The notes beneath the pieces were generated by a model that did not search any database, was not told where the DNA came from, and worked only from the letters and a program-made list of their open reading frames with translations. Positions 9,862-61,432 of a DNA stretch of 64,000 nt are shown here, piece after piece (the stretch's first letter is position 1; every line of letters begins with the position of its first letter). The translations under genes were made by a program, and so were the position numbers. The DNA lies in NCBI GenBank assembly GCA_015064395.1, contig SVSH01000010.1:4890-68889 (forward strand). The letters run 5' to 3'. Source of the DNA: Oscillospiraceae bacterium (GTDB lineage: Bacteria; Bacillota; Clostridia; Oscillospirales; CAG-272).

Positions 9862-10324
9862 CTTTCTCTCTTTTGTCCGCCGCACAACGCGCGGCGGGAG
9901 GTTTATGCACCTTCTTGGCGTTCCCCAAGAAGGTGCCAAGAAGGGAACCAAGGGGCCTAATGCCCCTTGGGACCCCACTACCCGACGGCTTTTTGAGAGC
10001 CGTCGGGACTTTTGCCTTTGCAAGCCTCCTCCATCTTGGGCGCATGAGCGCACGCCCAAGATGAGTTTGTCTTGGCAAAAGTTTTTGCCTTCTTCGCCTG
10101 CCGCTCGTGTTGGTAAGATTTGAAGCACAGCACTAAAAGCGCTTATATGATCTCTCTTGTTCCTCTTTGCAGAGCGGCAAAGCCAGGGGGTTCCCAGGGG
10201 GAACGCCTGGGTTCCTTTTCTTTCGCCATTTCTTTGTGGAACGACAAAGAAATGGCATCCATGCCTGTACAGCGCACGCGCGTAGCAGTGTGCGCGTCAA
10301 AAGGAGAAGTTGTTTGGAATTTAG
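9862..10324 (+). repeat. hairpin-dense modular repeat element, locus R1 unit 1 (463 bp, short-middle 'alpha' form)
   Basis: By eye, identical to unit 2 except for one base (t at 9874 vs c at 10337). Ends in AAAAGGAGAAGTTGTTTGGAATTTAG. Confidence 0.95.
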
Positions 10325-10787
10325 CTTTCTCTCTTTCGTCCGCCGCACAACGCGCGGCGGGAGGTTTATGCACCTTCTTGGCGTTCCCCAAGAAGGTGCC
10401 AAGAAGGGAACCAAGGGGCCTAATGCCCCTTGGGACCCCACTACCCGACGGCTTTTTGAGAGCCGTCGGGACTTTTGCCTTTGCAAGCCTCCTCCATCTT
10501 GGGCGCATGAGCGCACGCCCAAGATGAGTTTGTCTTGGCAAAAGTTTTTGCCTTCTTCGCCTGCCGCTCGTGTTGGTAAGATTTGAAGCACAGCACTAAA
10601 AGCGCTTATATGATCTCTCTTGTTCCTCTTTGCAGAGCGGCAAAGCCAGGGGGTTCCCAGGGGGAACGCCTGGGTTCCTTTTCTTTCGCCATTTCTTTGT
10701 GGAACGACAAAGAAATGGCATCCATGCCTGTACAGCGCACGCGCGTAGCAGTGTGCGCGTCAAAAGGAGAAGTTGTTTGGAATTTAG
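10325..10787 (+). repeat. R1 unit 2 (463 bp tandem copy)
   Basis: The 463-nt period is confirmed by identical track ORFs starting at 10120 and 10583. Confidence 0.95.
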
Positions 10788-11325
10788 CTTTCTCTCTTTC
10801 GTCCGCCGCACAACGCGCGGCGGGAGGTTTATGCACCTTCTTGGCATTCCCCAAGAAGGTGCCAAGAAGGGAACCAAGGGGCCTAATGCCCCTTGGCACC
10901 CCGCAGTGCGCCACGGCAAAATGAATTTTGCCTGATTGTGGCGCAAAAGTACACATCTTCAACGCTTGCGTTTGCAAGTGAAAGAAACTTGCAAACACGG
11001 AAGTGGCACGCAAGATGCAAGAGCAAAAGCTTGTGCCGCCGTTCTACGCACCTTGCGATAGCATAAATCTTACGCAAAAACGGAAAGCAAAAGCCCTTGC
11101 TTTCTCCGCCTGCCGCTCGTGTTGGCAAAAATTGAGGCACAGCACAGGGAGTGTTCATGTGACCTCTTGTCTTTCTCTTTGTAGAGCGGCAAAGGAGGGA
11201 GGACCCGGAGGGAACGTCCGGGTTCACTTTCTTGGTTACTTCTTTGTTGAAAGACAAAGAAGTAACAGAACGCATACGCCGCCGCGTTGTGGCGGCGACA
11301 AACAAAAGGAGAAGCTGCTAAATCT
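10788..11325 (+). repeat. R1 unit 3 (long-middle 'beta' form)
   Basis: The first ~108 nt match units 1 and 2. It then switches to the longer middle shared with R3, R10, R2, R4 and R8. Ends in AAAAGGAGAAGCTGCTAAATCT. Confidence 0.85.
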
Positions 11326-11360
11326 CTTGCTTCCCCCACAAACCCAAAGCAAAAAACATA

Positions 11361-11400
11361 GCACCTATACCCCTTGCGAAGTATAGGTGCCTTTTTATTT
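11361..11400. terminator. bidirectional terminator downstream of ftsH
   Basis: GCACCTATAC-CCCTTGCGAA-GTATAGGTGC, flanked by an A-run and a T-run. Confidence 0.75.
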
Positions 11401-11406
11401 CAATCA

Positions 11407-13410
11407 TCAAAAGAAATTCGAACCATAACTGCCGATCGGTGTATCGTCAGCCGGGGGATCCGAAGGCCCCGAGTCGTCGGAACTACCTGTCGCATCGGGC
11501 TTGCTTTCGTCCTCGGCACGCTTTTCGTTTTCCTCGCGGCTCTTGCGCTTCTTCTCCTCAAGCATTGCCTCCAGCTCTTCGATGGTGGGATCACCATCCA
11601 TCGCGGCGGCAAACTGCTCGCCGTCCATGATCTCATTCTTCATGAGGAAGTCAGCGATGAACTTCATCTTGTTCATATGCTCGGACAGAATGGTGCGAGC
11701 CAGCTCGTGTGCCTCGGTGATCAGCTTGTGGATTTCCTCGTCAATCTTGGTTGCCGTCGTGCCGGCGTAGTCCTTGGTGCTGGACGAGAAGTCACGGCCC
11801 AGGAACACCTCGCCCTGGTTGCCGCCGAAGGCGCGAGGACCGAGCAAGTCGCTCATACCCAGACGGGTGACCATCTGACGGGCAATGTTGGTGGCACGCT
11901 CAATATCGTTGGAAGCACCGCCCGAAATATCGTCGAACATCAGCTCCTCCGCCGTGCGGCCACCCAACAGCATGGCGATCTCTTGCTTGAGCTCGTTGCG
12001 GTAAACGCTGTATTTATCCTCCACAGGGGGATTGAGGGTGTAGCCCAGTGCGTTGCCACTGGGAATGATGGAAATCTGCTGAACAGGGTCAAGCAGGGGC
12101 AGAACGTGGGCGATAATGGCGTGACCCGCCTCGTGGATGGCCGTCTTGTACAGCTCTTCCTTTTTGCGCACGCGGGACTTCTTCTGAGGACCGGCGATGA
12201 CTTTGATATAAGCATCTTCGATATCATCCATGCCGATCAGAGCCTTGTTGCGTCTGGCGGCCAGAAGGGCAGCTTCGTTGAGCAGGTTGGCCAGATCCGC
12301 ACCGGTAAAGCCGGCGGTTGTGCGAGCCACACGGGCCAGATCCACACTCTCTTCCAGGGGCTTGTTGCGGGAGTGAACCTTCAGGATCTCCTCGCGTCCC
12401 TTGATGTCGGGATAGTTGACCGTGATCTGACGGTCGAAACGACCGGGACGCAGCAGTGCGGGGTCAAGAATGTCGGGGCGGTTGGTCGCTGCGATGACGA
12501 TGATACCGTCGTGCGCACCAAAGCCGTCCATTTCAACCAGCAACTGGTTGAGCGTCTGCTCGCGCTCGTCGTGCCCGCCGCCCAGTCCCGCACCGCGGTG
12601 GCGACCGACAGCATCGATCTCATCGATAAAGATGATGGAAGCAGGCGCTTTGCGCGCGGTCTCAAACAGGTCGCGTACACGAGAGGCGCCGACACCGACG
12701 TACATTTCTACGAAATCCGAACCGGAAATAGAGAAGAAGGGAACACCGGCCTCACCGGCAACGGCCTTGGCCAGCAGCGTCTTACCCGTACCGGGAGGGC
12801 CCACGAGCAGAACGCCGTGGGGAATCTTGGCGCCGAGCTTGCTGTACTTGGCGGGATTCTTGAGGAATTCCACCACCTCCTGCAGCTCTTCCTTTTCCTC
12901 GTCTGCACCGGCAACGTCGCGGAACAGGACGCGGTTCTGATCGTTGGGATTGGGCGTTTTGACACGTGCCTTGCCAAAGCTGTTCATCTTACCGCCGCCC
13001 TTGCTGCCAACGCGGGCCATATAGACCCACAGCGCGATAAACAGGACGATGACGATAAGATAGGGCAACAGGCTCAGCCACCAAGGATAGGTGACAGGGG
13101 GCTCGTATTCGCCCTTGAGCGTACCCGCGGCCATTTGCTCGGTGATGATCTCACCCAGGTCGGCGTGGAACAAGGAGAGATTGGCCACCTCGTAGATGAC
13201 CTCCTTGCCGTCGATCAGCTTCATGGTCAGGATATAGTCCGGCGACAGATTGAACTCTGCTACCTGCCCGCTGGTGAAGTACTGCACCACCTTGTCGTAG
13301 GTGGGATTCTCCGCCGCATTGCTGTTTTGGAACATCTGGGCAAGGAAGAAGACGATCAATCCGATCAGCAGGACATAGAATAAGATAACTTTTATGTCTT
13401 TGCGTTTCAT
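11407..13410 (-). CDS. ftsH: ATP-dependent zinc metalloprotease FtsH
   Basis: 667 aa. Walker A GPPGTGKT, second region of homology, and the HEAGH zinc site. Confidence 0.97.
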
Positions 13411-13434
13411 TGGTTTCCTCCAGTCGTGGGAATC

Positions 13435-14007
13435 TTATTTGGTGTAGACCTCACTCTTGAGGACACCGATATAGGGGAGATCGCGGTATTTTTCATCAAA
13501 ATCCAGGCCGTAACCCACGACGAACTCGTCGGGGATCTCGGCGCCGGTATAGTCTGCTTTGTAGTTTACCTCACGGCGGCTGGGCTTATCCAACAGCGTG
13601 ACGGTTCTTACGCTGTGCGCACCGCGCCCGCGCAGATTTTCGGTCAAGGAGGCCAGGGTTCGACCGCTGTCGACGATATCCTCAACGAGGAGTATGTCGA
13701 TGTTTTCATAGTCGTCCCGCTTGAGATCCAGGTGGATCTTGAGCTGACCCGACGAGACCGTACCTGCGTAGTAGGACGAGACCTTGACAAAATCTAACTC
13801 AACAGGCATATTCAGCTTTTTGATCAGATCCGTATAGAAGAAGACAGAGCCCTTCATGACGGCAACGACGATCAGCTTGTAGGAACGAATGGCATTTGGC
13901 GAAGGAGCGTAGTCGCGGTTGATGCGGTCGGCAAGGCTTGTGACGATGCCGTCAAGCTGCTCCTCGGTGAATAAAATGTGGTCAATATCTTGTCTTGGAT
14001 CGATCAT
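13435..14007 (-). CDS. hpt: hypoxanthine phosphoribosyltransferase
   Basis: 190 aa from the internal Met (GGAGG RBS at 14015-14019). PRPP motif ILLVEDIVDSGRT. Overlaps the tilS stop by 4 nt. Confidence 0.93.
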   Translation of the reverse strand: MIDPRQDIDHILFTEEQLDGIVTSLADRINRDYAPSPNAIRSYKLIVVAVMKGSVFFYTDLIKKLNMPVELDFVKVSSYYAGTVSSGQLKIHLDLKRDDYENIDILLVEDIVDSGRTLASLTENLRGRGAHSVRTVTLLDKPSRREVNYKADYTGAEIPDEFVVGYGLDFDEKYRDLPYIGVLKSEVYTK

Positions 14008-16834: not shown

Positions 16835-16858
16835 GGCTCAAATAAGCTCCTTGGTGGT

Positions 16859-17308
16859 TTATTTTTTCTCGCAAACGGTGATGTGGATCTTGCCGACGAT
16901 CTCCTGGAACAGCTTGACCTCACGGGTGTAAGCGCCGTAGGTGCGGATGGGCTCGTCCGAGAGGATCTTGCGCTTGTCGATGGTGATGCCTGCCTGCGCG
17001 GCCAGCGCCTCGACGATGTCCTTGGAGGTGATGGAGCCGTACAGGCGTCCGTCGCCGCCCGACGAAGCGGGGATCTTGACCATAATGCCTTCCAGCTTTT
17101 CGGCGGTGGCTTTGGCCTCGGCGCGCTCAACGGCGATCTTGTGCTCCTCGCTCGCCTTTTTGTTCTTGATCTCATTCAGGCTCTGCGCGTCGGCAGGCTT
17201 GGCAAGTCCCTTGGGGAAGAGGAAGTTTTTGGCATAGCCGTCGGATACGTTGATGATCTGATCCTTTTTGCCTTGGGATTTTACGTCTTGCAGTAAGATA
17301 ACTTTCAT
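16859..17308 (-). CDS. rplI: 50S ribosomal protein L9
   Basis: 149 aa from the internal Met MKVILLQDVKSQGKKD (AAGGAG RBS). The upstream extension in the track ORF runs into repeat R2. Confidence 0.95.
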   Translation of the reverse strand: MKVILLQDVKSQGKKDQIINVSDGYAKNFLFPKGLAKPADAQSLNEIKNKKASEEHKIAVERAEAKATAEKLEGIMVKIPASSGGDGRLYGSITSKDIVEALAAQAGITIDKRKILSDEPIRTYGAYTREVKLFQEIVGKIHITVCEKK

Positions 17309-17343
17309 GGTGGTACTCCTTGTATAGATAGAGATATTTTTTC

Positions 17344-17815
17344 GGTAGCCGGATGGGCGCGCCACAATGCGGCGCGCTGTGCGGTTGTGTTACTTCTTTG
17401 ACGCACGTCAAAGAAGTAACCAAGAAAACGTGCCAAGACGTTCCCTCTTGGATCTCCCTTGGCATTGCCGCTCTGCAAAGCGAAAGAGGAGAAAGATATA
17501 AAAATTTGTAATGCATCGCTTGCCATTTTGACAACACGAGCGGCAGATGTAGAAAGCAAGAGTTTTTGCTCTGCAATGTGTGCGAGTTTCTTTAACTCGC
17601 GCACACGAGCGTTGAAGTCGCATATCTTCGCGTCGTGTTGCGCGGAGCGAGAGCGCAGCGCCCACAAAGGCGCGCTGCGGGGTTCCAAGGGGCATTAGGC
17701 CCCTTGGTCCGTTTTCTTGGTTCGTTCTTTGTCGGATGACAAAGAATGAACAATTATGCTTTCACCGAGCGCGCGCAGCAGGGCGAGGCTGTAGGAGAAG
17801 ATGTGAAAAATTTAG
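17344..17815 (-). repeat. modular repeat element, locus R2
   Basis: Contains the GTAG-CCGGATGG + GCGCGCCACAATGCGGCGCGC hairpin and two TTCTTTG/CAAAGAA hairpins (17389-17420, 17720-17751). Also carries an inverted GGGAACG-loop hairpin (17433-17451) and an inverted long-range GCCGCTC/GAGCGGC module. Terminus ...GGAGAAGATGTGAAAAATTTAG. Confidence 0.9.
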
Positions 17816-17820
17816 AATAC

Positions 17821-17839
17821 CTAAATTTACTTCCTCTCC
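17821..17839 (-). repeat. solo element terminus overlapping the gdpP stop codon
   Basis: CTAAATTTACTTCCTCTCC is the reverse complement of GGAGAGGAAGTAAATTTAG. Together with the R2 terminus it forms AAATTTAG-AATAC-CTAAATTT. Confidence 0.6.
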
Positions 17840-22377: not shown

Positions 22378-22977
22378 CTAAATTTCAAACAACTACTTCT
22401 TTTGACGCGCACACAGCTGCGCGCGTGCGCTGTGCTGGCATGGATGCCATTTCTTTGTCGTTCCACAAAGAAATGGCGAAAGAAAGGGAACCAAAGGCTG
22501 CCGCCTTTGGAAACTGCTCCCGTGCCGCTCTACAAACAGGAAGACAAGAGGTCATATAAACGCTTTTGATGCTGTGCCTCAAATTTAGATAACACGAGCG
22601 GCAGGCGGGGAAAGCAAGAACTTTTGCTTTCCGTTTTGCTGGAAATTTGCACTATCAAAGGGTGCGTAGAACGGTGGCGCAAAAGTTTTTGCTGTTGCAT
22701 TTTGCGTGCTACTCCCATGTTTGCAAGTTTCTTTAACTTGCAAACACAAGCGCTGAAACTGCTTACTTTTGCGTCGTGTTGCGCGGAGCGAAAGCGTAGC
22801 GCTCACAAAGACGCACTGCAGGGTTCCAAGGGACATTAGGTCCCTTGGCGCCCTTCTTCCGCCACTTCTTGGGGCGCGCCAAGAAGTGGCATCAAAAACC
22901 GGCACAGTTCAGCGCGCGCAGCTCGACGAAGTCGAGGTGGGCTGTGTGCGCTTGCCAAGAAAAAGTAGTTAAAAAAT
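22378..22977 (-). repeat. modular repeat element, locus R3 (full-length beta form, TIR-bounded)
   Basis: Starts CTAAATTTCAAACAACTACTTCTTTTGACGCGCACAC and ends ...GTGTGCGCTTGCCAAGAAAAAGTAGTTAAAAAAT. Module-for-module it is the reverse complement of R10. Confidence 0.9.
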
Positions 22978-23186
22978 CCAACTATCTCTTTTTCACCCTC
23001 AACAACCTCCTGAGCAACGGCGCCAAAAACGCAGGGGAACGCCAAACGACAATTTTCATACCCGTTTCCACCTTTCATAAGTCACATTCTCATTAACGAT
23101 TGTATGCATCGCCCCCGAAAACGGTTCCCCAAAGTCCCCATCCTCAAAAAAATATAAATAAATACGGAAAAAATCGCAAAAAGCCC

Positions 23187-33946: not shown

Positions 33947-34631
33947 TTTTGAATTTTTAACAACTGCTCCTACGGATGGGCGCGACACAACGCGTCGCGC
34001 TGTGCGTGGATGCCTATTCTTTGCCTTGTCGCAAAGAATAGGCGAAGAAAAGACACTTAAGGGCCTAATGCCCTTAAGAAACCCGCAAAAATTTTCTCTT
34101 TCGCTATCTTTTGGTGGTTACCAAAAGGCAATATTGCATCTGCAACTCTTGCGAAACAAAATCCAAAGATTTTGTTTCTATTGCAAGCAGGCGAGTACCC
34201 TCCGCTTCATCCCGTGCTGCGCTTCAAAACGAAAGAAGAGAAGAACAGCTATGTTGTTTATGCGCTATTCAAGGGTAGCTATCACGCGCGGCAGGCGTAA
34301 TAAGCGAAAATTTTTGGTGAAATGGGGCGCGGAAAGCAGGAGCAAAATTTTTTCAAAAGCGTCTTGCGTGCTACTTCCGTGAGGGCAAGTTTTTTTAACT
34401 TGCCCTCGCGAACGCTGAAGTTGCTCACTTTTGCGCCACGATCAGGCAAAATTCATTTTGCCGTGGCGCACGGCGGGGTTCTAAGGGGCTTGCCCCTTAG
34501 TCCGTTTTCTTGGTTCGTTCTTTGTCGGAGGGCAAAGAATGAACATCAAAAACTGCACAGCGAGCGCGCACAACTCGACGAAGTCGAGGTGGGCAGTGTG
34601 AGCGTCAAAAGAAGAAGTTGTTGGAATTTTA
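33947..34631 (-). repeat. modular repeat element, locus R4 (degenerate long form)
   Basis: Left end TTTTGAATTTTTAACAACTGCTCC. Contains TTCTTTG/CAAAGAA hairpins at 34012-34043 and 34513-34544, and CTTAAGGG/CCCTTAAG and CTAAGGGG/CCCCTTAG hairpins. Right end ...AAAAGAAGAAGTTGTTGGAATTTTAA overlaps the XRE stop codon. Confidence 0.85.
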
Positions 34632-34847
34632 ATTCAACTTCCTCGGCTCATTTGTAAATCCAGCAAGATAGTCCAATGATACGTTATAAAATTTAGCCAA
34701 AGCAATAGCAATGCAAAAAGGAACCTCCTGCTCGCCGCGTTCATAGCGAGCATAGGTCGTTGTATATAGGCCGAGGGCTTCGGCAATTTGACGTTGGCTG
34801 ATATCGTGATCTTCTCTTAAATCGTGTAATCTTAAATAATCAAACAT
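34629..34847 (-). CDS. XRE-family helix-turn-helix transcriptional regulator
   Basis: 72 aa from the internal Met MFDYLRLHDLREDHDISQRQIAEALG. The upstream extension in the track ORF is repeat-derived. Confidence 0.8.
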   Translation of the reverse strand: MFDYLRLHDLREDHDISQRQIAEALGLYTTTYARYERGEQEVPFCIAIALAKFYNVSLDYLAGFTNEPRKLN

Positions 34848-34940
34848 ATATTTACTCCGAAAACAAAGATTGTGCTGACTCCATTCTACCATAAAGAAAG
34901 AAAAAGTGTTGAAAATACATACAAAAATATGTATAAAAAA

Positions 34941-35055
34941 TTCTCCTACGGCCTCGCCCAGCTTCGCGCGCTCGGTAAATGTGTTTTTTGTCACTTCTTG
35001 GCGCGCCCCAAGAAGTGACCAAGAAGCGCGCCCAGGCGTTCCCCCTGGGAACCCC
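34941..35055. repeat. repeat-element fragment, locus R5 (a left-end portion)
   Basis: TTCTCCTACGGCCTCGCCCAGCTTCGCGCGCTCGG, then CACTTCTTGG/CCAAGAAGTG, then CCCAGG-CGTTCCC-CCTGGG. It matches the R10 left end minus its first ~10 nt. Confidence 0.8.
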
Positions 35056-35174
35056 CTGCTGCTGCTTTGTTCAAAGTTTGTTTACAAACACAAAATTGTG
35101 TTATTTTCAAGCAGAAAAATCTATTTTATGATATCATTGGAATACCGCAATAAAAACAAAAAAGGAGAACAATA

Positions 35175-38930: not shown

Positions 38931-39232
38931 CTAAATTTGTTAGAGCTTGTGTAGCCTAAGCGGACTCGAACCGATCAGCCTCTCGCGCGAAAAATTTTCG
39001 CGTCTTTACGCGTGACTCGGCTTGAAAAGTCCGCACTTTCCGGCGCCTCGTCCCGCAAAAATCCATCAAAAATTTTTCAGGCGAGAGGTGCCTTGCAGTT
39101 TTAGGCGAGCAAATATTTGTCATAGGCAAGGAAAAAAGGCGAAGCAATATGCGGATATTGCAAGACTTTTTGACACAGCATATGCGGATATTTGCCGCCT
39201 AAAACCTCATTGGTTCGAGCCCACTTAGGCTA
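38931..39232. repeat. palindromic element with tRNA T-arm/acceptor-like inverted termini (locus R6a)
   Basis: TAGCCTAAGCGGACTCGAACCGAT (38952-38975) pairs with ATTGGTTCGAGCCCACTTAGGCTA (39209-39232), an imperfect 24-nt inverted repeat. Internal long-range complements are 38976-38986 with 39081-39090, and 39099-39116 with 39188-39204. It is preceded by CTAAATTTGTTAGAGC (38931-38946). Confidence 0.8.
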
Positions 39233-39619
39233 GCCGGACGCTCACACTGTGCTTTGCACGCGCTCGCGAACAGTTCTTTTGTTCATTCTTTCTTGTCCGA
39301 GAAAGAACGAACCAAGAAAGCGGACTAAGGGGTCTAATACCCCTTAGAACCCCGCAAAACCTTTTGCTTTCTTCGTCTGCCGCTCGTGTTGGGCTATATG
39401 GCGAGAGATGCGCAAGGAGTATATATGTCTTTCTCCTCCGTCCACTTTGCAGAGCGGCACGGGAAGGGAGTTCCAAGAGGGAACGTCTTGGCGCGCTTTC
39501 TTGGTTCGTTCTTTGCCGCGTGGCAAAGAATGAACATTCCTGCTGTCCGCGAGCGCGTGCAGCTCGACGAAGTCGAGGTGGGCTGTGCGAGCCTGTAGAA
39601 AAAGGTGCAGAAAATTTAG
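39233..39619 (+). repeat. modular repeat element, locus R6b
   Basis: Hairpins at 39281-39312 and 39504-39535 (TTCTTT/AAAGAA type), CTAAGGGG/CCCCTTAG, the long-range GCCGCTC...GAGCGGC module, and CCAAGA-GGGAACG-TCTTGG (39473-39491). The terminus ...GAAAATTTAG lies 2 nt before the rsgA stop. Confidence 0.9.
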
Positions 39620-40644: not shown

Positions 40645-40678
40645 ATGTATCCTTTCGGGGGGATTTAGGGGGGAGGTT

Positions 40679-41093
40679 AAAGTTTTTAGAGCTTATGTAG
40701 CCGGAAGGGCGCGCCACAACGCGGCGCGCTTTGTGGGTGTGTTACTTCTTTCTCATTCAAGAAAGAAGTAACCAAGAAAGTGAACCCGGACGTTCCCTCC
40801 GGGGCCTCCCTTTTCGTGCCACGCTACAAAGCGGTACAAGAGAGATCAAATATGCTTTCCTTATGCAGATCTCCAAGGGAGACAACACGCGTGGCAGGCG
40901 GAAAAAGCAAGAAATTTTTGCAATCTCCACAGGGGCGTTCTTCGAACGCCCGCGGGCGAACGCAGTTCGCCCCTACAGGTAAATCTAACATCGTGGAGCG
41001 AGTGGGAAGGGGCCCACGAGCTTGCGATAGTACCTATGGAACAGCGCACTCACTTTCCCATACAGGGCAAGGAGAAGTTGTCCCGGCTACACT
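40679..41093 (-). repeat. modular repeat element, locus R7
   Basis: Contains GTAGCCGGAAGG + GCGCGCCACAACGCGGCGCGC, GTTACTTCTTTC/GAAAGAAGTAAC (40741-40772) and CCCGGA-CGTTCCC-TCCGGG (40785-40803). The inverted long-range stem has the compensated arms GCCACGC (40818-40824) and GCGTGGC (40889-40895). Right end AAGGAGAAGTTGTCCCGGCTACAC. Confidence 0.85.
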
Positions 41094-41177
41094 CCTGTTT
41101 CCTCCTTGAAGATTTTTGAAGGGTCGTAGGGAAACTTTTTTCAAAAAGTTTCCCTACACCGTCCCCTCTCGCGTCCC

Positions 41178-45166: not shown

Positions 45167-45661
45167 TTAAAGTTGTTAGAGCAAGCGTCGCCGGACGCTC
45201 ATACTGCGCGACAAGTCGCGCGCTGAGCGGATAGCTTGTGTGCCATTTCTTTGTCGCTGAACAAAGAAATGGCGAAAGAAAGGGAACCAAGACGTTCCCT
45301 CTTGGAACTCCCTTTTCGTGCCGCTCTGCAAAGAGGGCTGGGGAGAAAAACATAAAAGGTTTAAGTGCCATCTCTCGCCATTATGCCAACACGAGCGGCA
45401 GGCACACAAAGCAAAAGGTTTTGCCTTGAAGTGAGCGTGGCTTTCTTTAAGCCGCGCTCGCAAAATTTGAATTCGCTTACCTCCGCGCCACGATCAGAAA
45501 AGCTTTCGCTTTTCGTGGCGCGCTACGGGTTTCCAAAGGGTATTAGACCCTTTGGTGCCTTTTCTTCGCCTATTCTTTGCGGCAAGGCAAAGAATAGGCA
45601 CTTGCCAACCGCGAGCGCGCGCAGCTGGGCGAGCCTGTAGAAGAAGTTGTTAAACCCTTAG
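45167..45661 (-). repeat. modular repeat element, locus R8
   Basis: Contains hairpins 45242-45273 and 45568-45599, CCAAGA-CGTTCCC-TCTTGG (45287-45305), the inverted long-range GCCGCTC/GAGCGGC module and CCAAAGGG/CCCTTTGG. The terminus GAAGAAGTTGTTAAACCCTTAG overlaps the fmt stop codon with its last bases. Confidence 0.9.
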
Positions 45662-52641: not shown

Positions 52642-52732
52642 AACAAATCAACAAAAACACAGGAGGGAGAAGGAATACCGCCGCGCGGTGCGCCATTCTC
52701 CCTTTTTGTTCAAACGAAAGGAGAACATAACA

Positions 52733-53215: not shown

Positions 53216-53224
53216 GTTTGGACT

Positions 53225-53262
53225 AAAAAAGCGGACTTTCTTTGGAAAGTCCGCTTTTTTGT
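53225..53262 (+). terminator. rho-independent terminator
   Basis: AAAAAAGCGGACTTTC-TTTG-GAAAGTCCGCTTTTTT. Confidence 0.85.
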
Positions 53263-53296
53263 TGGGCGGGATTTGAAGCAATTGCTTGAAATTTAG

Positions 53297-53757
53297 TTTT
53301 CTCTCCTTTGTCCGCCGCACAACGCGCGGCGGGAGGTTTATGCTACTTCTTGGCGTTCCCCAAGAAGTAGCCAAGAAGGGAACCAAGGGGACACCCCTTG
53401 GGACCCCGCTGCCCGACGGCTTTCGAGAGCCGCCGGGGCTTTTGCTTTCGCAAGCCTCCTCCATCTTGGGCGCATGAGCGCACGCCCAAGATGGGTGCGG
53501 TTTGGCAAAAACCCTTGCTTTCTTTGCCTGTCGCTCGTGCTGGCAAAATTTGAGGCACAGCACAGGGAGCGTTTATGTGATCTCTCGTCTTCCTCTTTGA
53601 AGAGCGGCACGGGAGCAGTTTCCAAAGGCGGCAGCCTTTGGCGCGTTTTCTTGGTTCGTTCTTTGCCGCGTGGCAAAGAATGAACAACAAAGACAGTACA
53701 GCGAACGCGTGCGAAGCACAGTGTGAGCGTCAAAAGGAGAAGTTGCTTGAAATTCAG
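53297..53757 (+). repeat. modular repeat element, locus R9 (alpha form, 461 bp) flanked by direct repeats
   Basis: Collinear with the R1 units. The left flank ATTGCTTGAAATTTAG (53281-53296) matches the element terminus GTTGCTTGAAATTCAG (53742-53757). Confidence 0.92.
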
Positions 53758-53819
53758 CTAAACAAAACAAACCTCCCATCCCACACATGCCGCGTGGGAT
53801 GGGAGGTTGTCTATCTTTT

Positions 53820-56495: not shown

Positions 56496-56677
56496 AAGGA
56501 ACTCCTCCTTAAAATAGTTTTGCTATGTGCGCCTTGAGCGCCAAGCGATGGGAAGCACGAGATCTGGTACTACGTGCTACACGTACCATTATATCCCCTT
56601 TCTCCCCGTTTGTCAAGGGTCAGTTAGACGGAGACTGTTGTCGAGGCGAGTCAGCCCCTTATCATGGAGAAATGCGA

Positions 56678-56710
56678 CAAAAAACGAGCCGGGACATCTT
56701 GTCCCGGCCC
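56678..56710 (-). terminator. rho-independent terminator of the SPFH gene
   Basis: GAGCCGGGAC-ATCTT-GTCCCGGCCC preceded by AAAAAA on the plus strand, which is a T-run on the minus strand. Confidence 0.75.
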
Positions 56711-56728
56711 ATCCTTTGAGCGATCAGG

Positions 56729-57751
56729 TTATTCGCCGGCTTGCTCGTCGGTCTCCTCGGTGGTTTCCTCGGGAGCTTGCTCGGTGGCATCTTCTTGGTT
56801 CTTCAGACCATAGATCAAAGCCAGAATGCCCTGCTCATCCATGCCTGCGATAAACTCGGGCATCTTGCCGTCCCACTGCTTGATGGCGTAGTATTCCAGC
56901 AGTACCTCGGTCAGCGACTCGGACAGTGCCTTGTTGACGGCGGCATCCTTCTGACCGGCGTACTCGGCGGCGTCAGCCTGGATCTGCAGAACCTCCTTTT
57001 CCGCCTCTGCCTGGATCTTGACGACCTCGGCATTCGCCTGGGCCGTGATGACCTGACGGTCAGCGGCGGCCTGCTCCTCCATGGTCTTTTGCTCCTGCTC
57101 GGTCTCGGCCTTCAGCTTTTCCTGCTGGGCGACCTGCTTCGCCTCGACCGCCTGGGTGAAGACGTCCGAGAAATCCATATCCTCGATCGCCGTGTTGACG
57201 ACGTCGATATTGTAGACGCTCAACTCCTTCAAAAGGATGTCGGTGATCTGGGAGGAGAGCCTGTCGCGGTTCTCGATCAGCGTTTCGGCCGTGTACTTGG
57301 CGATCACGCTGCGAACAGCCACCTCAATGCGGGGCTGCATCACGACGTCGTAATACTCCTCGCCGATGGTCTTGTAGATGTTCTGTGCGTCGCTCTTCTG
57401 GATCTGATAGTTGATGGAATAGCGAACGGAGACCTCCTGGATGTCGCTGGAGAAGCAGCTCAGGTCAACGACGGACTTCTGGGTGCGGTTGTCCATCACG
57501 ACGACCTTTTGAACGGGGAACTTGAAATGCAGACCGGCCTCCAGCGTGGTGTCCTCCACGCGGCCAAAGGTGGTCAGAATGCCCGTGTGTCCGGTGGGAA
57601 CGACGGCAAACATGCCGCCGATCAACCACAGGCAGCCAAGCAGCGAGAGGAGCTGACGGGGACGCAGCTTCCACTTTTTCTCCGCAACCGAAATGCCGAG
57701 AACGATGAAAAGAACCAGCGCGGTGACCAGGGATAAAATGATAAATGCCAT
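56729..57751 (-). CDS. SPFH/band-7 (prohibitin-like) membrane protein
   Basis: 340 aa. N-terminal TM, then the SPFH domain, then a coiled-coil AQQEKLKAETEQEQ region and an acidic tail. Confidence 0.85.
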   Translation of the reverse strand: MAFIILSLVTALVLFIVLGISVAEKKWKLRPRQLLSLLGCLWLIGGMFAVVPTGHTGILTTFGRVEDTTLEAGLHFKFPVQKVVVMDNRTQKSVVDLSCFSSDIQEVSVRYSINYQIQKSDAQNIYKTIGEEYYDVVMQPRIEVAVRSVIAKYTAETLIENRDRLSSQITDILLKELSVYNIDVVNTAIEDMDFSDVFTQAVEAKQVAQQEKLKAETEQEQKTMEEQAAADRQVITAQANAEVVKIQAEAEKEVLQIQADAAEYAGQKDAAVNKALSESLTEVLLEYYAIKQWDGKMPEFIAGMDEQGILALIYGLKNQEDATEQAPEETTEETDEQAGE

Positions 57752-57780
57752 AGGTAACTCCTTCTGCCCGTGGGGCGTAT

Positions 57781-57828
57781 AAAAATATCACGCGACCGTG
57801 TATCATAATTATAACACGCGGTCACGTG
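57781..57828 (-). terminator. candidate terminator of trkH, which may overlap the SPFH promoter
   Basis: Imperfect inverted repeat TCACGCGACCGTGT (57788-57801) with ACACGCGGTCACGTGA (57813-57828). An A/T-rich run on the minus-strand 3' side. The loop contains TATAAT-like sequence. Confidence 0.5.
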
Positions 57829-57860
57829 ATTGTCAATAGGTTGTCAAAAGATTTTGAAAA

Positions 57861-59339
57861 TTATTTTTTAGACCAAGCGGAGGGCAGGAACAGAATGAGG
57901 ATGGGGAACAGCTCCAGACGCCCCAGCAGCATATTGAAGGAAAGTAACAGCTTGGATGCAACGGTAAAGCCGCCAAAGCTGCCACCGCCCAGAATACCAA
58001 GCTCACCCAGGCCCGGGCCGACGTTGTTCAGACAGGAGGCCACGGCGGTGAAGGAAGTGAGCAGATCGGAACGGTTCAATATCATCAAAAGCACCGTCGA
58101 AAGGGTAAAGATGAGCATGAAGAGAGAAAAATAGGCGTTGACACCGCGGATGGTATCGTCGTCTGCCGGCTTGCCCTCGACGCGCACGGCGCGTACCTCG
58201 CGAGGGCGCAGGATAAAGCGGAGCTCGCGGAAGGCGCTTTTGATCAAAATGATGAGACGGCTGATCTTCAGTCCGCCGCAGGTCGAGCCGGCGCAGCCAC
58301 CGATGAACATGAGCAATACCAGGATAGCCTGTGAGAGCTGTGGCCAGGCGTCGTAGGTGGCGGTGGTAAAGCCCGTGGTCGAAATGAATGAGGAGACGGT
58401 GAAGGCTGCATCACGCAGGGCGATGGCAAAGCTATCGTATCCCGGCAGGATATTGAGTGTGACGATGGTGACCGAGGAGGCGACCACAATCAAAAACCAG
58501 CGAAGCTCCTCGCTCTTCAGCGCTTGGGACACGTGACCGATCAGTATCAGATAGTACAGGTTAAAATTGATCGAAAAGATCAACATAAAGGCGGTGATGA
58601 CCCAGTGGATATAGGAGCTGTCAAACGCCCCGATGGAGGTGTTCATGTTAGAAAAGCCACCGGTTCCCGCCGTGGAAAAGGTGTGGAGCACCGCGTCAAA
58701 CAACGACATACCGCCGAACAGCAAGCATACGATCTCGATCAGGGTCAGGGCTACATAGATGGCATACATAATGATCGCCGAGCGACGGATGGTTGCCACC
58801 ACCTTGGTGGCGGTCGGACCGGGCACCTCGGCGCGCATGGCGTGCATCAGGCGTGCGGACTTGAACTGCTGCTGGGGCATAACGGCCAGAACGAAAACGA
58901 GGACGCCCATGCCGCCGATCCAGTGGGTCAGCGAGCGCCACAGCGCAATGCCGTGATCCAGATCCCCGGGCAGTGTGCCGACGGCGTCGCCCAGCACGGT
59001 CGCACCCGTGGTGGTAAAGCCGGAGACGGTTTCAAAGAAGGCGTCAACGGGATGGGGAATCGCACCGCTGATGATGAAGGGTAGCATACCAAACAGCGAC
59101 AGCACCACCCAGGAAACCCCCACGACGAACAAGCCGTCGCGCACGCCCATGCGGTCGCGCTCTGCCGGACGGCGCAGCGTGAGCAGCGTGCCTGCGATGA
59201 GCAGCAGAAGGATGGGGATGAGCAGGGCGTGCCACGAGTCCTCCCGGTAGATCAGCGAGCAGGCAAAGGGAAGCAACATCAGTAGCCCCTCGACGCGCAT
59301 GATCTGGCCGATGATATAAAGAATCAAACGTAAATTCAT
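57861..59339 (-). CDS. trkH: TrkH-family potassium uptake membrane subunit
   Basis: 492 aa, polytopic, with repeated selectivity-filter-like TTTG/TAGTGG/STTGFT/CAGSTCGG segments. Confidence 0.9.
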   Translation of the reverse strand: MNLRLILYIIGQIMRVEGLLMLLPFACSLIYREDSWHALLIPILLLLIAGTLLTLRRPAERDRMGVRDGLFVVGVSWVVLSLFGMLPFIISGAIPHPVDAFFETVSGFTTTGATVLGDAVGTLPGDLDHGIALWRSLTHWIGGMGVLVFVLAVMPQQQFKSARLMHAMRAEVPGPTATKVVATIRRSAIIMYAIYVALTLIEIVCLLFGGMSLFDAVLHTFSTAGTGGFSNMNTSIGAFDSSYIHWVITAFMLIFSINFNLYYLILIGHVSQALKSEELRWFLIVVASSVTIVTLNILPGYDSFAIALRDAAFTVSSFISTTGFTTATYDAWPQLSQAILVLLMFIGGCAGSTCGGLKISRLIILIKSAFRELRFILRPREVRAVRVEGKPADDDTIRGVNAYFSLFMLIFTLSTVLLMILNRSDLLTSFTAVASCLNNVGPGLGELGILGGGSFGGFTVASKLLLSFNMLLGRLELFPILILFLPSAWSKK

Positions 59340-59349
59340 GAAGTAAACC

Positions 59350-60762
59350 TCAATCCAGAATGTCGTTCAGCTCGGACAGCTGGGGATTGGTGGTGACGAC
59401 GATAACGCTGTCTCCAGCCTCCAGCGTACTGCCGCCGTGGGGGTAAATGACCTTGCCCGCGCGGACGATAGAAGCGATCAGGGTGTTGGGCTTGAGCTTG
59501 AATTCGGGGGACATCAGGGGGATGCCCGGCTTGCGGAAGTGGCGATCAACGTCGAACTCCAGCGCCTCGGCGCGGTCATCGCACAGCTTGTACAGCGACT
59601 TGATGCCGACGGAATGCTCCCGGCCTGGGTCTCCTTCCTCCCCGCCTCGTTTTTGTACCATTTTTTTGCCGTTCTCCAGGCCGCGCAGGTAACGAAGCAC
59701 GGTGGTCGAGGAGATCTGGCGGGGGGAAACGGTGCAGTCAATGCCCAATTCGGGTAGCATTTTGATAAAGGACAGACGGTCGATCTTGGTGATGATGCGC
59801 TCGACGCCCTGCGTGCGGGCAAACATCGAAACGATGACGTTTTCCTCGTCGTTGCCGGTCAGCGCGATGCAGGCATCCATCTCGGCAAGTCCCTCCTCCT
59901 CCAAAATTTCTCCATTGGTGCAATCCGCCGCGATGATGGTGGAGTTGGGCAGCAGGGTGGAGAGATCTTGGGCGCGGGACTCGTCGATCTCGACGATGCG
60001 GGTGCGGATGTTCAGCCGGGTCAGGTGCTGTGCCAGGTAATAAGCGATGCGACCGCCGCCCAGCAGCATGACGTCGCGGACGGGCTTGCCCATCAGACCC
60101 AGCTTGCCGAAGAAGGAGGACAGATCGGTGTGCGAGGCGGTGATACTGATATTATCTCCCGCCATAATGGTGAAATCACCGGAAGGGATGAACACCTGTT
60201 CGCCGCGGCGAATGGCGCACACCAGCACGCGAACGCCAAACAGGGAGGATAGCGTGTACAGCTGCTTGCCGGCCAGGGGATGCCCTTCCGAGACGTAGAT
60301 CTCGGCCATATCGACCTGCCCCTTGGCAAAGGCGTCTATTTTAAGGGCGGCAGGGAAGCGGATCAGGCGAGCGATCTCGCGGGCGGTATCGTATTCGGGA
60401 TTGACGACCAGGTCAATGCCCAGGTGGTTACGGAGAAAATTATTCTCGCGGGAATATTCAGGGTCACGGACGCGGGCAATGGTGTGGGCGGCACCCAGGC
60501 TTTTGGCCATCATACAGCAGACCATATTCAATTCGTCGGTATTGGTGACGGCGATAAACAGATCGGCATCCGGGACGCCGGCCTCCAGTTGAACGGCCTG
60601 GCTGGCGCCGTTTCCTGCGACGCCCAGCACGTCGTATTGGTTTACAACGCGGTTGATCAGGGCAGGGTTTTTATCGATCACGGTCACGCTGTGGCCTTCG
60701 CCGGAGATATAGCGGACGAGGGTGTCGCCGACCTTACCGTCGCCTACGATTACGATGTTCAT
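59350..60762 (-). CDS. trkA: Trk system NAD-binding peripheral subunit TrkA (tandem RCK)
   Basis: 470 aa from MNIVIVGDGKVG (AAAGGAG RBS). A second Rossmann domain starts at VMLLGGGRIA. The upstream extension in the track ORF is repeat R10. Confidence 0.9.
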   Translation of the reverse strand: MNIVIVGDGKVGDTLVRYISGEGHSVTVIDKNPALINRVVNQYDVLGVAGNGASQAVQLEAGVPDADLFIAVTNTDELNMVCCMMAKSLGAAHTIARVRDPEYSRENNFLRNHLGIDLVVNPEYDTAREIARLIRFPAALKIDAFAKGQVDMAEIYVSEGHPLAGKQLYTLSSLFGVRVLVCAIRRGEQVFIPSGDFTIMAGDNISITASHTDLSSFFGKLGLMGKPVRDVMLLGGGRIAYYLAQHLTRLNIRTRIVEIDESRAQDLSTLLPNSTIIAADCTNGEILEEEGLAEMDACIALTGNDEENVIVSMFARTQGVERIITKIDRLSFIKMLPELGIDCTVSPRQISSTTVLRYLRGLENGKKMVQKRGGEEGDPGREHSVGIKSLYKLCDDRAEALEFDVDRHFRKPGIPLMSPEFKLKPNTLIASIVRAGKVIYPHGGSTLEAGDSVIVVTTNPQLSELNDILD

Positions 60763-60866
60763 ATGGGCTCCTTTGTTTGAAATGATGGGTGATGTGGGTA
60801 TATGATAATACTTTTTTGGAAAAATTGCAATAGGTTTTGGGATATTTTGTTTTAGGGAGAATGAGG

Positions 60867-61432
60867 TTTTAACAACTTCTCCTCCCCACGCGCACCCAGC
60901 TTCGCGCGTGCGCTGTGCGAATGATGCCACTTCTTGGCACGCCCCAAGAAGTGGCGGAAGAAGGGCGCCAAAGGGCCTGGAGCCCTTTGAAAACCCGCAG
61001 TGCGTCTTTGTGGGCGCTACGCTCTCGCTCCGCGCAACACGACGCAAAAATCTACAGTTTCAGCGCTTGCGTTTGCAAGTTAAAAAAACTTGCAAACACG
61101 GAAGGTGCACGCAAGATGCGATAGTAAAAAGCTCTTGCTGTCGTTCAACGCGGCTTATGACAGCATAGCTTTTTCGCAAAACGGAAAGCAAAGCCTCTTG
61201 CTTCCTCCACATGCCGCTCGTGGTGACAAGAGTTGAGGCACAGCATCAAAAGGGTTTATGTAATCTCTCGTCTTCCTCTTTGTAGAGCGGCAATGCCGGG
61301 GGTCCCCAGGGGGAACGCCTGGGCGCGTTTCTTGGCTACTTCTTGCCGCGCGGCAAGAAGTAGCATCAAAAAACCGGTACACCGAGCGCGCGGAGCTGGG
61401 CGAGGCAAAAGAAGAAGTTGTTTGAAATTTAG
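60867..61432 (+). repeat. modular repeat element, locus R10 (full-length beta form, TIR-bounded, 566 bp)
   Basis: Left end TTTTAACAACTTCTCCTCCCCACGCGCACCCAGCTTCGCGCG. The right end reverse-complemented reads ATTTCAAACAACTTCTTCTTTTGCCTCGCCCAGCTCCGCGCG. All modules are present. Confidence 0.92.

Follow-up and report, generated by a model that had tools for sequence, protein, structure and literature searches.

The 40 ORFs in the 64-kb stretch of DNA analysed here (the window) matched housekeeping families in Pfam or had no match, and ten intergenic loci were found to be built from one common set of modules. All ten, listed in a first-pass annotation of this DNA, were recovered at the same coordinates by blastn with a 463-bp unit and by repeat search. 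They total about 5.99 kb, or 9.4% of the window, with about 11 copies per 64 kb. A re-scan of the window returned the same ten intervals, its library, built from the ten loci, being blind to anything outside them. The 28-base core pattern CTGCCGCTCGTGTT-N45-70-TTTGNAGAGCGGCA matched seven times in the window and never in 100 dinucleotide-preserving shuffles. All ten loci belong to a single real, non-random family that had not been described before. Its members are non-coding elements, 0.4-0.7 kb long, packed with hairpins and bounded by inverted repeats, and they occupy the intervals that separate housekeeping genes in a small clade of uncultured Clostridia from gut and rumen.

A canonical copy measures 375-720 bp, as seen in 36 copies bounded by inverted T-ends, and has a pair of inverted arms, each about 130 nt long, around an asymmetric centre, a layout shared by nearly all copies. 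From the outside in, each arm comprises a C-rich tail, the terminal motif or T-end (finishing ..GAAGTTGTAAAAAATTTAG, also given as ..GAGAAGTTGTAAAAAATTTAG), a GC hairpin, a hairpin with a YTTCTTKG/CMAAGAAR stem and a CCAAG..CTTGG hairpin; the left half of the unit is the reverse complement of its right half. The centre combines optional, variable hairpin modules with one core, present without exception in every complete element. This core starts with a small hairpin, P1, followed by an inner hairpin enclosed in an 8-bp long-range stem (GCCGCTC/GAGCGGC). Modules (a) to (g) of the first-pass annotation were all present, some with corrections. Terminus (a) is real, but its inverted copies at the ends of most loci had been overlooked, as had the reverse complementarity of the two unit halves, and module (c) exists with a spacer of 6 nt, not 8. 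The GGGAACG loop of module (f) is common but not invariant: a CCAAAGGC-GGCA-GCCTTTGG hairpin takes its place in two window copies (22.5 kb and 53.5 kb) and in several from MAGs. For module (e), TTGAGGCACAGCA and the pyrimidine tract were confirmed, but the inner hairpin has two main versions, and they belong to just one of these. The elements are non-coding, since their stems carry indels and compensatory changes and the 463-bp unit is not a multiple of 3. Neither a conserved sigma-70 promoter nor a conserved canonical terminator was found inside them. Their true ends are fuzzy and lie beyond TTTAG in the C-rich tail, and no target-site duplication could be defined.

The first locus is a tandem array of the 463-bp unit (9846-10902, plus strand), with 2.3 copies that are 99% identical (TRF, period 463), T-ends closing the units at 10324 and 10787, and cores at 10074-10180 and 10537-10643. 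Its first T-like repeat (9843-9861) coincides with the final 19 nt of the RACo gene, TAG stop included. A diverged third copy (10903-11331, plus strand; core 11086-11192) differs in its middle modules and finishes on the right with a b-type GC hairpin and a degenerate T-end, followed by a bidirectional terminator (11360-11391). Between gdpP and rplI lies an inverted-repeat-bounded copy in sense with the operon (17344-17839, minus strand; core 17465-17570); its outward T-end finishes at 17815, and at the opposite end a degenerate T (..CCGGCTACCGAAAAAATATCT) precedes the rplI start codon by about 25 nt. Upstream of a BspA-LRR gene we found a complete inverted-repeat-bounded element of 603 bp (22378-22980, minus strand; core 22522-22628) with a C-rich tail beyond its 22378 end. 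The inverted-repeat-bounded copy downstream of pfk (33949-34632, minus strand; 684 bp) has a diverged core (34214-34317, 48.7 bits). The coreless fragment at 34929-35077, with no strand assigned, retains part of an inverted T-end together with two hairpins, one of type c (34990-35019) and one resembling f.

Two copies flank rsgA. The one between rsgA and the thiamin pyrophosphokinase gene (38931-39619, plus strand; core 39352-39460) is antisense to both genes. Its T-end finishes just 2 nt away from the stop codon of rsgA, at 39619, and about 300 bp of unique sequence (38950-39250) is nested within the copy, with inverted ends that resemble a tRNA T-arm. The other, between the PASTA-kinase gene and rsgA, is half-canonical and in sense (minus strand; core 40816-40919, with a compensated stem GCCACGC/GCGTGGC); its limits, 40660-41152, come from an empty-site comparison and replace the earlier span of 40679-41093. 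In its right arm, modules f and g are followed by a b-type hairpin, the T-end and a C-rich tail extending to the ribosome-binding site of rsgA; its left part is a non-canonical module. Between fmt and a Zn-peptidase gene, an inverted-repeat-bounded copy in sense (45167-45661, minus strand; 495 bp; core 45318-45425) holds the fmt stop codon within its T-end (45658-45660) and ends 21 nt upstream of the Zn-peptidase ATG. The copy at 53278-53757 (plus strand; core 53504-53610) is a direct-type unit with the direct repeat TTGCTTGAAATTYAG on both sides (53282-53296 and 53743-57); its orthologous copy in L025 has swapped modules. The last, between a uroD-like gene and trkA, is inverted-repeat-bounded and antisense to both (60861-61432, plus strand; 572 bp; core 61187-61293), and a promoter-like site, TTGCAA-N17-TATCAT, faces trkA just outside its 60861 end.

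In agreement with the first reading, no copy in the window interrupts a gene, and none of the 40 ORFs matched transposase, integrase or RAYT families. Several T-ends overlap the stop codon of a flanking gene, and many are followed, 15-35 nt downstream, by a ribosome-binding site and a start codon, which places those copies in a 5' UTR or operon spacer. Others lie upstream of a host promoter or between convergent genes. In co-directional gene pairs 18 copies were sense and 11 antisense, a moderate sense bias. A screen for genes that recur next to other copies covered about 0.33 Mb; there, as in the window, we found no transposase, recombinase or HUH gene and no parent IS sharing the element ends. 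No ORF enclosed by a pair of elements was found either.

An exact-pattern scan located the family in 7 of 185,579 species-representative genomes, all of them MAGs of uncultured Clostridia. These assemblies contain 34 loci, and one metagenome assembly adds 10, which makes 44 other loci; viral contigs, plasmids and phages gave no match. Rfam gave none even at permissive thresholds, consistent with the initial failure to assign the elements to a named family. Contigs with the flanking genes, from this species and close relatives, were mostly under 2-3 kb and mostly broke at the elements; their shortness hints indirectly that the density across the genome may be as high as in the window. The elements are not local duplications but a dispersed family shared by several species.

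Copies were observed at orthologous sites in different species, and inheritance at fixed sites is now mostly vertical, as shown for several site pairs. Sites were occupied in L058, reduced to internally deleted remnants in L055 and empty at all three sites compared in L056, a relative at 76% identity. L057, at 89%, had one clean empty site, PASTA/rsgA; a single empty site of this kind in a close relative may just as well result from precise deletion as from a missing insertion. The orientation of the core differed among relatives at two of nine orthologous sites, rsgA/TPK and fmt/Zn-peptidase, the latter being opposite in L043 and L057. Same-species contigs from several samples had one orientation at 100% identity. 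One orthologous pair was 97-99% identical, compared with about 93% in its flanks, whereas other pairs reached just 52-80%. Copies within one genome were at most 85% identical, and in JAZQUX, the best-sampled MAG, they were more similar among themselves than to positional orthologues. Near-identical copies at different loci were not found, and there is therefore no sign of recent transposition.

The first-pass annotation had hedged between a non-autonomous mobile family and a family of structured RNA or ssDNA elements, and both sides gained support, the former from the terminal inverted repeats and the differences in presence and orientation at orthologous sites, the latter from covarying hairpins. 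Its att-cassette variant fared worst, since there is no integrase and most ends are inverted, not direct. We lean towards lineage-specific, non-coding, non-autonomous foldback elements, whose nearest counterparts are bacterial MITEs and mosaic repeats of the BIME and NIME type. Some observations run against this choice: the RNA-like covariation of the core, which a purely selfish DNA repeat would not predict, the sense bias, and the failure to find a mobilising enzyme in the window or the roughly 0.33 Mb screened, an ORF between elements, a definable target-site duplication or signs of recent transposition.

That the elements are primarily functional structured RNAs, with the inverted arms a mere spreading vehicle, seems to us rather unlikely. 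The centre (P1, long-range stem, inner hairpin and f hairpin) would then be a cis-acting domain in leaders and spacers, or an sRNA, and could control processing, stability, termination or translation of the neighbours. The core, best-conserved part of the element, argues for this: its helices are 86% paired, compared with 44-51% after a shift of the 3' partners by 1-3 columns, and its covariation score of 0.225 exceeds that of shifted partners (at most 0.127) and was reached in none of 500 shuffles. The inner helix keeps its pairing in at least four sequence versions, with mismatches on the sense strand that are mostly G-T (132, against 16 A-C), as for G-U intermediates. The universal presence of the core, the T-ends just before ribosome-binding sites, the sense bias and the one orthologous copy conserved beyond its flanking genes point in the same direction. 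P1, however, shows the reverse on that strand (A-C 39, G-T 20), and the whole 463-nt unit (-211 kcal/mol) folds equally well on either strand (z = -8.9 on plus, -10.6 on minus). An RNA function is also difficult to reconcile with the missing promoter and terminator, with copies antisense to the operon (about one third of the informative ones), upstream of host promoters or between convergent genes, with an orientation that varies at the same site among close relatives, with the absence of an Rfam match, and with a 76%-identity relative that manages without elements at the three sites compared.

Less probable still is a REP/BIME- or REPIN-like system, in which the hairpins would be recognised as ssDNA by a single-copy HUH (Y1) transposase of RAYT/IS200 type elsewhere in the genome, which would spread and sustain the population. 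A GC-rich hairpin does lie beside GTAG/CTAC in a large share of the T-ends (GTAGCCGGA plus hairpin, or hairpin plus CCGTAG), but the commonest variant, GTCAAAAGGAG, lacks GTAG. The tail ..CCTATCCGGCTAC resembles the E. coli REP tail, ..CTTATCCGGCCTAC. The hairpins alternate in orientation and combine as mosaics, as in BIMEs, and the stems covary, so base-pairing matters. Read on the outward strand, mismatches in the c/g hairpins are nearly all G-T (19 against 1), although most of the 19 stem from one hairpin variant identical by descent. REPIN populations typically persist vertically over the long term with no transposase gene nearby, which fits; a Y1/RAYT gene was seen in none of the sampled loci, though a single-copy gene is easily missed. 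REPs and REPINs are, moreover, 10-20 times shorter than these units, whose centre is conserved and not palindromic. Substrates of site-specific recombination, with palindromes or T-ends as recombinase sites and the centre as an inverton or att-flanked cassette, are a very improbable explanation. The orientation differences at two of nine sites would agree with it, as would the near-perfect c and g palindromes with the 12-6/8-12 geometry of tyrosine-recombinase core sites and reverse-complementary spacers in the 463-bp unit (CGTTCC and GGAACG), and the 15-20 nt direct repeat that flanks direct-type copies and the tandem array like attL/attR. Yet there is no recombinase gene nearby, the centre has no promoter, the neighbours are housekeeping rather than phase-variable surface genes, orientation is uniform among the same-species contigs from several samples, and the covariation of stem positions outside the conserved TTCTTKG/CMAAGAA motif speaks for pairing there rather than sequence-specific protein binding. 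The 463-bp array is indeed a local tandem duplication, but segmental duplication or an assembly artefact of the window is refuted as a general explanation by core and arms at the 44 other loci (7 MAG assemblies and one metagenome assembly); same-species contigs independently assembled from other samples carry the elements, and copies at separate loci in the window are just 70-83% identical (blastn).

Like bacterial MITEs (Correia of Neisseria, ERIC, Nezha, those of Coxiella), the foldback elements are non-coding, intergenic and numerous, have terminal inverted repeats and no transposase of their own, would form long hairpins when transcribed, lie beside promoters, ribosome-binding sites and stop codons, and vary in presence at orthologous sites. 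MITEs, however, have a simple inverted repeat of 15-40 nt, whereas the arms here hold three hairpins and a terminal motif in about 130 nt; no target-site duplication is definable, and no parent IS with matching ends turned up; and every copy has a conserved, covarying, non-palindromic centre, the copies being old (at most 85% identical) and mosaic. With REP, BIME and REPIN sequences and their RAYTs they share extragenic GC-rich palindromes in alternating orientation, mosaics with other motifs, covarying stems, long vertical persistence and, in part, GTAG/CTAC next to a GC hairpin. Those units are shorter (REP 20-40 nt, REPIN about 100 nt, against 375-720 bp), and here GTAG is not universal, no RAYT was seen and the host lineage is Firmicute rather than proteobacterial. 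NIMEs, flanked by dRS3 inverted repeats, and pneumococcal BOX (boxA-boxB-boxC) are likewise intergenic mosaics of a limited module set reshuffled between loci, with stable RNA structure predicted and no known mobilising enzyme; there is no sequence relationship, and the present family differs by a large foldback around an obligatory core and by modules that are perfect hairpins. Invertons, the invertible promoter switches of gut bacteria, also have an asymmetric segment between inverted repeats upstream of genes, in both orientations at the same site in related genomes, but here the centre lacks a promoter, no invertase is adjacent, neighbours are housekeeping genes, same-species samples show one orientation and the density is far higher. 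Large structured ncRNAs (OLE, GOLLD, ROOL, HEARO and other IS-associated guide RNAs) similarly have a conserved, covarying multi-helix domain that comparative analysis revealed in anaerobic or uncultured Firmicutes, and the domain described here travels, as do HEARO and other omega RNAs, on a vehicle that resembles a mobile element. In our elements, which have no known transcript or associated protein and no Rfam match, the well-supported asymmetric structure spans just about 110-150 nt, and the predicted folding is mostly that of DNA palindromes, equal on either strand.

Our best reading is that the elements behave like old non-autonomous mobile DNA remodelled by recombination. They would have colonised intergenic sites in the ancestor of a small gut and rumen Clostridia clade, abutting stop codons, ribosome-binding-site leaders and promoters. 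This original spread presumably needed a trans-acting enzyme recognising the arms, and the CTTCTTKG motif, reiterated about six times per arm, looks like multiple binding sites for this putative enzyme. Since then, the copies appear to have been continually remodelled by recombination with one another; the patterns observed would reflect module swapping, within-genome homogenisation, internal deletions, tandem duplication and changes of core orientation at a site. Many copies, being located inside operons or 5' leaders, are probably co-transcribed into very stable folded RNA, and effects on mRNA processing and stability would thus likely be by-products or secondary functions of these elements.

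The ten hairpin-packed intervals reported in the first-pass annotation were all recovered, by blastn with one 463-bp unit, by repeat finding and by re-scanning with a library which, being built from the ten loci, is blind to copies outside them. Together they make up 9.4% of the window (about 5.99 kb). A tandem array at 9846-10902, described by TRF, has a period of 463 bp, 2.3 copies and 99% identity, and next to it lies a diverged third copy. A 28-base core pattern occurred seven times in the window and not once in 100 shuffles, and on either strand the fold of one unit was much more stable than those of its shuffled versions (z = -8.9 and -10.6). The modules described earlier needed some revision: the spacer of module (c) is six and not eight nucleotides long, the supposedly invariant GGGAACG loop varies, and TTGAGGCACAGCA with its pyrimidine tract is indeed present, alongside a second main version of the inner hairpin.

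The window itself covers a housekeeping region in a genome of sporulating, Clostridia type (G+C about 56%) and encodes SpoIIE, GdpP-RplI-DnaB, IF-2 and PriA-Def-Fmt-RsmB-RlmN-PASTA kinase-RsgA. In Firmicutes, genes mostly follow the leading strand, and the pattern seen here, with positive GC skew of the + strand throughout the window and yet nearly all genes between 35.5 and 62.5 kb on the - strand, is unusual for them. A strong bidirectional intrinsic terminator (11349-11391; 14-bp stem, T-runs on both sides) separates the repeat array from the convergent ftsH. At 219-3056 the window holds a very large ORF without a Pfam domain, which measures 1240 aa on the longer contig L001 and there adjoins a LytTR response-regulator gene.

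A common anatomy emerged from alignments of 37, then 57 copies, with terminus and core modelled by profile HMMs. Nearly all copies are bounded by inverted termini (T-ends), CTAAATTT.. on the left and ..GAGAAGTTGTAAAAAATTTAG on the right. We found 36 such pairs of the form CTAAATTT.. / ..AAATTTAG in the window and related loci, that is, terminal inverted repeats of the MITE type, enclosing 375-720 bp with length classes near 385, 480 and 550 bp. Inward of the T-end the inverted similarity extends over about 130 nt, the arm, which comprises a GC hairpin, a hairpin with the conserved inner stem YTTCTTKG-N6-8-CMAAGAAR and a CCAAG..CTTGG hairpin. Given this inverted layout, f, g and the terminal GC hairpin mirror modules b, c and d of the first-pass annotation, and each locus contains c/g, d/f and b hairpins pointing both ways. 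The CTTCTTKG motifs repeated in each arm look, from their sequence, like multiple putative protein-binding sites. Outward, the similarity runs on into G-rich and C-rich tails: a C-rich tail such as CCTCCCCCCTAAATCCCCCC or TTATCCCCCC follows most T-ends, with a mirror-image G-rich run at the opposite end, and the G runs on the strand opposite the C-rich tails could form G-quadruplexes. Examples of C-rich tails lie at window 40645-40680 and in the flanks of the related loci L003, L009, L014, L015, L028 and L029. Some MAG copies carry additional partial terminus repeats outside the main T-end, and in some a unit of about 45 nt (C-run plus CATCCGGCTACGAAGTTGTAAAAAATTTAG) is reiterated there.

Between the arms lies an asymmetric centre with optional modules, among them a hairpin whose stems covary around the conserved loop TAAAGAAA. 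Exactly one core is present in every centre: a small P1 hairpin followed by a GCCGCTC/GAGCGGC long-range stem around the inner hairpin. The 463-bp unit of the direct-type array and the copy at 53.3 kb are the same element minus the tip of the left arm, and both are flanked by a direct repeat of 15-20 nt of terminus. By inspection, and as a lead only, the 5' half of the core looks like a T-end. Such 5' halves are fused straight to a T-end in several related loci (L026 1-81; L008 1038-1116 and 3628-3700; L015 680-740; L035 4596-4679; L055 15212-15301), which suggests recombination of the T-like segment of the core with real termini; the same process may be the source of the left end (CTTTCTCTCTTTCGTCCGCC) of the 463-bp unit in the window. 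A stretch of about 300 bp at 38950-39250 is nested within the 38.9-kb element, with inverted ends resembling a tRNA 3' half (T-arm GGTTCGAGYCC and acceptor strand TAGGCTA). Among the sequences fetched, this insert was found only on contigs of the same species. A link to tRNA was rejected: ARAGORN called none in the window and, across 34 loci, just a single unrelated one, and the insert is unique.

RNAalifold applied to 37 copies gave 32 pairs, and compensatory double changes were seen in 19 of these. In a four-helix core model, hand-drawn on a MAFFT alignment made independently from 57 copies, pairing involved 86% of cells, versus 44-51% when the 3' partners were shifted by one to three columns; the covariation score was 0.225, versus at most 0.127 in controls, and none of 500 shuffles matched the observed values. 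The sequence of the inner helix varies, with at least four versions: GAGGCACA/TGTG-CCTC, GGCGAGAGAT/GTCTTTCTCC, GAGATC/GATCTC and GAATAGC/GCTGTTC. Its mismatches are G-T in 132 cases and A-C in 16, and because so many G-U pairs result, this helix can form on one strand only. P1 points the other way, A-C mismatches outnumbering G-T (39 versus 20). The arm hairpins are true palindromes with few mismatches (G-T 19 versus 1 on the outward-reading strand), counts dominated by one variant identical by descent, so that the strand test is informative for the inner helix only. Pairing is under selection all through the element, and strand-specific, RNA-like behaviour is seen in the centre only.

Coding capacity is excluded by indels and compensatory stem changes, and ORFs are absent from between the paired T-ends. 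Small reading frames (ATG-TTT-TTC-TCC.. in the core, TTG-TAA in the T-end) were rejected, their frame and length being variable. The earlier statement that the window lacks a transposase, integrase or RAYT held up, with none of 40 scanned ORFs matching such families. No autonomous IS with the same ends was found in the 64-kb window or in about 0.33 Mb of element-containing loci screened, nor was a gene flanked by the same termini, which the first-pass annotation had proposed to look for; the absence applies to this sample of loci. No T-end pair more than 0.9 kb apart had an internal ORF, and an autonomous copy was accordingly rejected. A recurrent neighbour was rejected as candidate transposase as well, since clustering of 402 ORFs from all loci yielded ABC ATPases, FTHFS and a sigma factor only. 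No RAYT (Y1 HUH) gene flanked by repeats was seen in the sampled loci, outside of which a single-copy gene could lie.

Compared with known systems, the elements resemble MITEs in their terminal inverted repeats, small size, lack of coding capacity and insertion polymorphism, but differ in that no related autonomous IS with the same ends was found in the screened sample. Like REP/BIME sequences, they are clusters of extragenic palindromes in alternating orientation mixed with other motifs. GC hairpins lie beside GTAG/CTAC in the CCGTAG and CCGGCTAC variants of the T-end, whereas the commonest variant, GTCAAAAGGAG, is without GTAG. T-ends with ..CCTATCCGGCTAC (e.g. 590-621 of L026 and window 17344-17375 and 40690-40720) combine a b-type GC hairpin with TATCCGGCTAC, which we take to resemble the tail of the E. 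coli REP consensus, CTTATCCGGCCTAC. The IS200/IS605-derived PATEs have no terminal inverted repeats, different subterminal hairpins at their two ends and insert in one orientation 3' of a fixed tetra- or pentanucleotide. In contrast, the arms of the present elements are long and inverted, and one site may be occupied in either orientation; the PATE layout is matched solely by the direct-type tandem array, whose unit comes after TTTAG. Integron cassettes form one-directional arrays beside intI with RYYYAAC ... GTTRRRY core sites in attC. The copies described here are dispersed between housekeeping genes, with inverted ends and no integrase in the window, and only their GTTGT/ACAAC loops resemble attC. 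Invertons, finally, show both orientations in one population, an internal promoter and an invertase nearby, whereas here orientation differs between species and there is no conserved promoter and no recombinase. Strain-level polymorphism of arrangement was not found among contigs of the window species from other samples, all of which, where they span an element, show one and the same arrangement at 100% identity.

The history of individual sites could be followed among relatives. Copies occupy orthologous sites across species in four pairs of loci (L013/L026, L017/L023, L022/L032 and L025/window 53.3 kb) and, in L020, L028 and L031, upstream of the FTHFS gene. One orthologous pair is 97-99% identical, versus about 93% in its flanks, and the other two pairs measured are 52-80% identical, versus 85-95% in their flanks; L025 and the window copy show module swapping. 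Dispersed copies within one genome reach at most about 85% identity. In JAZQUX, the most deeply sampled MAG, copies are nearer to each other than to their positional orthologues, which points to homogenisation by gene conversion or replacement and not to recent transposition; in other genomes the pattern is mixed.

Four syntenic relatives, found through Zn-peptidase homologues and characterised here by the identity of that protein to the window's, allowed three gaps to be compared. In L056 (76%) the fmt/Zn-peptidase, PASTA-kinase/rsgA and rsgA/TPK (thiamin pyrophosphokinase) gaps are all empty (93, 81 and 47 bp). In L055 (82%) they hold, respectively, a truncated remnant, 96 bp with a possible T-end remnant (by eye) and an internally deleted remnant. 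In L057 (89%) the outer two are occupied and the PASTA/rsgA gap is empty, its 55 bp consisting of a terminator-like hairpin, CAAA and a ribosome-binding site. All three are occupied in L058 (86%) as in the window. Taken together, the sites show insertion polymorphism among relatives. Orientation varies too: the core at fmt/Zn-peptidase is sense in the window, L058, L016 and L037 and antisense in L057 and L043, and at rsgA/TPK it is antisense in the window and sense in L057, L058 and L055. As the arms are mutual inverted repeats, a turn of the centre only and a turn of the whole element fit these differences alike.

Copies lie between convergent, divergent and co-directional genes, the last with 18 sense and 11 antisense cases in a count that orthologous loci enter repeatedly. 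In many cases a ribosome-binding site and start codon follow 15-35 nt downstream of an element's end, often with CCGAAAGGA as the context; other ends run into the stop codon of a converging gene, or are placed immediately before a good sigma-70 promoter that serves the next gene. Inside the element, no fixed position carries a recurrent sigma-70-like site, and for this reason the copies within operons (gdpP-rplI, fmt-Zn-peptidase, PASTA kinase-rsgA, rsgA-TPK) are probably co-transcribed. A sigma-54 promoter at TGGCAC of the H-module was rejected on inspection, the TTGC of such promoters being absent. Comparison with the empty site of L057 revealed that the inserted DNA runs beyond the T-end, through the C-rich tail, to the ribosome-binding site, and that the left junction is non-canonical. 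Since the inserted DNA takes in the C-rich tail, the functional ends lie outside TTTAG. No target-site duplication emerged: a direct repeat outside CTA../..TAG was absent from 36 end pairs, and a clean one from the empty site; a TA duplication inside a CTAG target is possible. The left PASTA/rsgA junction carries a leader-like sequence (C-run, AAAAA, AAGGAGG-like) similar to the real rsgA leader at the right (window 41100-41152 versus 40645-40680; L058 11995-12035 versus 12415-12450), and the two look like a diverged direct repeat of about 35 nt. The last 19 nt or so of RACo (9843-9861) and of gdpP (17816-17839, - strand) are T-end-like and include the stop codon; in fmt, the stop codon falls within a T-end (45658-45661), and the fmt end of the element-free L056 (GATGTATTGAAATAA) is still faintly T-like. 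Such gene ends could reflect a target preference, or chance.

A scan of 185,579 species-representative genomes located the exact core pattern at 34 loci in seven MAG assemblies labelled Eubacteriales, Clostridia or Oscillospiraceae, some of them named sheep colon; one core-bearing contig of 1 kb was binned as Spyradenecus, probably wrongly. Ten further metagenome loci all came from one assembly. Viral contigs scanned for the pattern gave no match, nor did blastn of the unit against plasmid and phage collections. As an exact-match pattern undercounts diverged copies, the range may be wider. Contigs with the flanking genes, from the window species and close relatives, are mostly shorter than 2-3 kb, which is the expected effect of a high-copy repeat on short-read assembly. 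Rfam gave no match at gathering score anywhere in the window, and only weak microRNA-type noise for three copies at permissive E-values (up to 10 for the array, up to 1 for the other two). Full-text searches of the literature turned up no description of the family. It is new to Rfam, to the plasmid and phage collections and to the literature so searched, though of a known kind, bacterial interspersed mosaic or MITE-like repeats; what is unusual is its size, the compound hairpin arms, the obligatory covarying centre and a local density of about 9%.

On balance, and with moderate confidence, we regard the elements as an old family of MITE/BIME/NIME-like foldback mosaic repeats, non-autonomous and specific to this lineage, whose copies would now be maintained and reshaped mainly by recombination among themselves. 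The main rival explanation sees in the centre, composed of long-range stem, large internal loop, inner helix and apical loop, a structured RNA with a function. In its favour are the inner helix, with its covariation and G-U pattern, a core found in every copy and the sense bias, but the centre is without promoter and terminator, antisense copies are frequent, orientation differs among relatives and one relative is element-free. The strong form of this explanation, which we consider improbable, would make the centre a structured RNA of a new class, or else an ssDNA domain specific to one strand, carried by a foldback vehicle that is present hundreds of times per genome. The centre could act as an orientation-dependent cis-regulator of the adjoining housekeeping operons or, by analogy with bridge and omega RNAs, could provide an unlinked recombinase or nuclease with a guide-type RNA. 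The likeness of its 5' side to the T-end, together with the co-occurrence of type-A and type-B centre variants with different T-end variants, hints at the guide idea, and shared descent would explain both equally well. Below the structured RNA we rank an ssDNA mechanism of the REP/RAYT type, models of site-specific inversion or of cassettes, and local duplication.

Provided that the window is representative of these uncultured gut and rumen Clostridia, a single repeat family makes up about 9% of their DNA and most of their longer intergenic gaps, which is very high for a bacterium. The family would explain the break-up of their assemblies into contigs of 1-3 kb at housekeeping genes and thereby bears on MAG quality and on gene-context analyses. 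In its centre, which is conserved and covaries, it also provides a concrete candidate for a structured RNA not described before. All in all, the family offers a tractable natural case of bacterial interspersed repeats that persist without a visible transposase, with relatives at 76-89% protein identity displaying fixed sites, within-genome homogenisation, change of orientation and clean loss.
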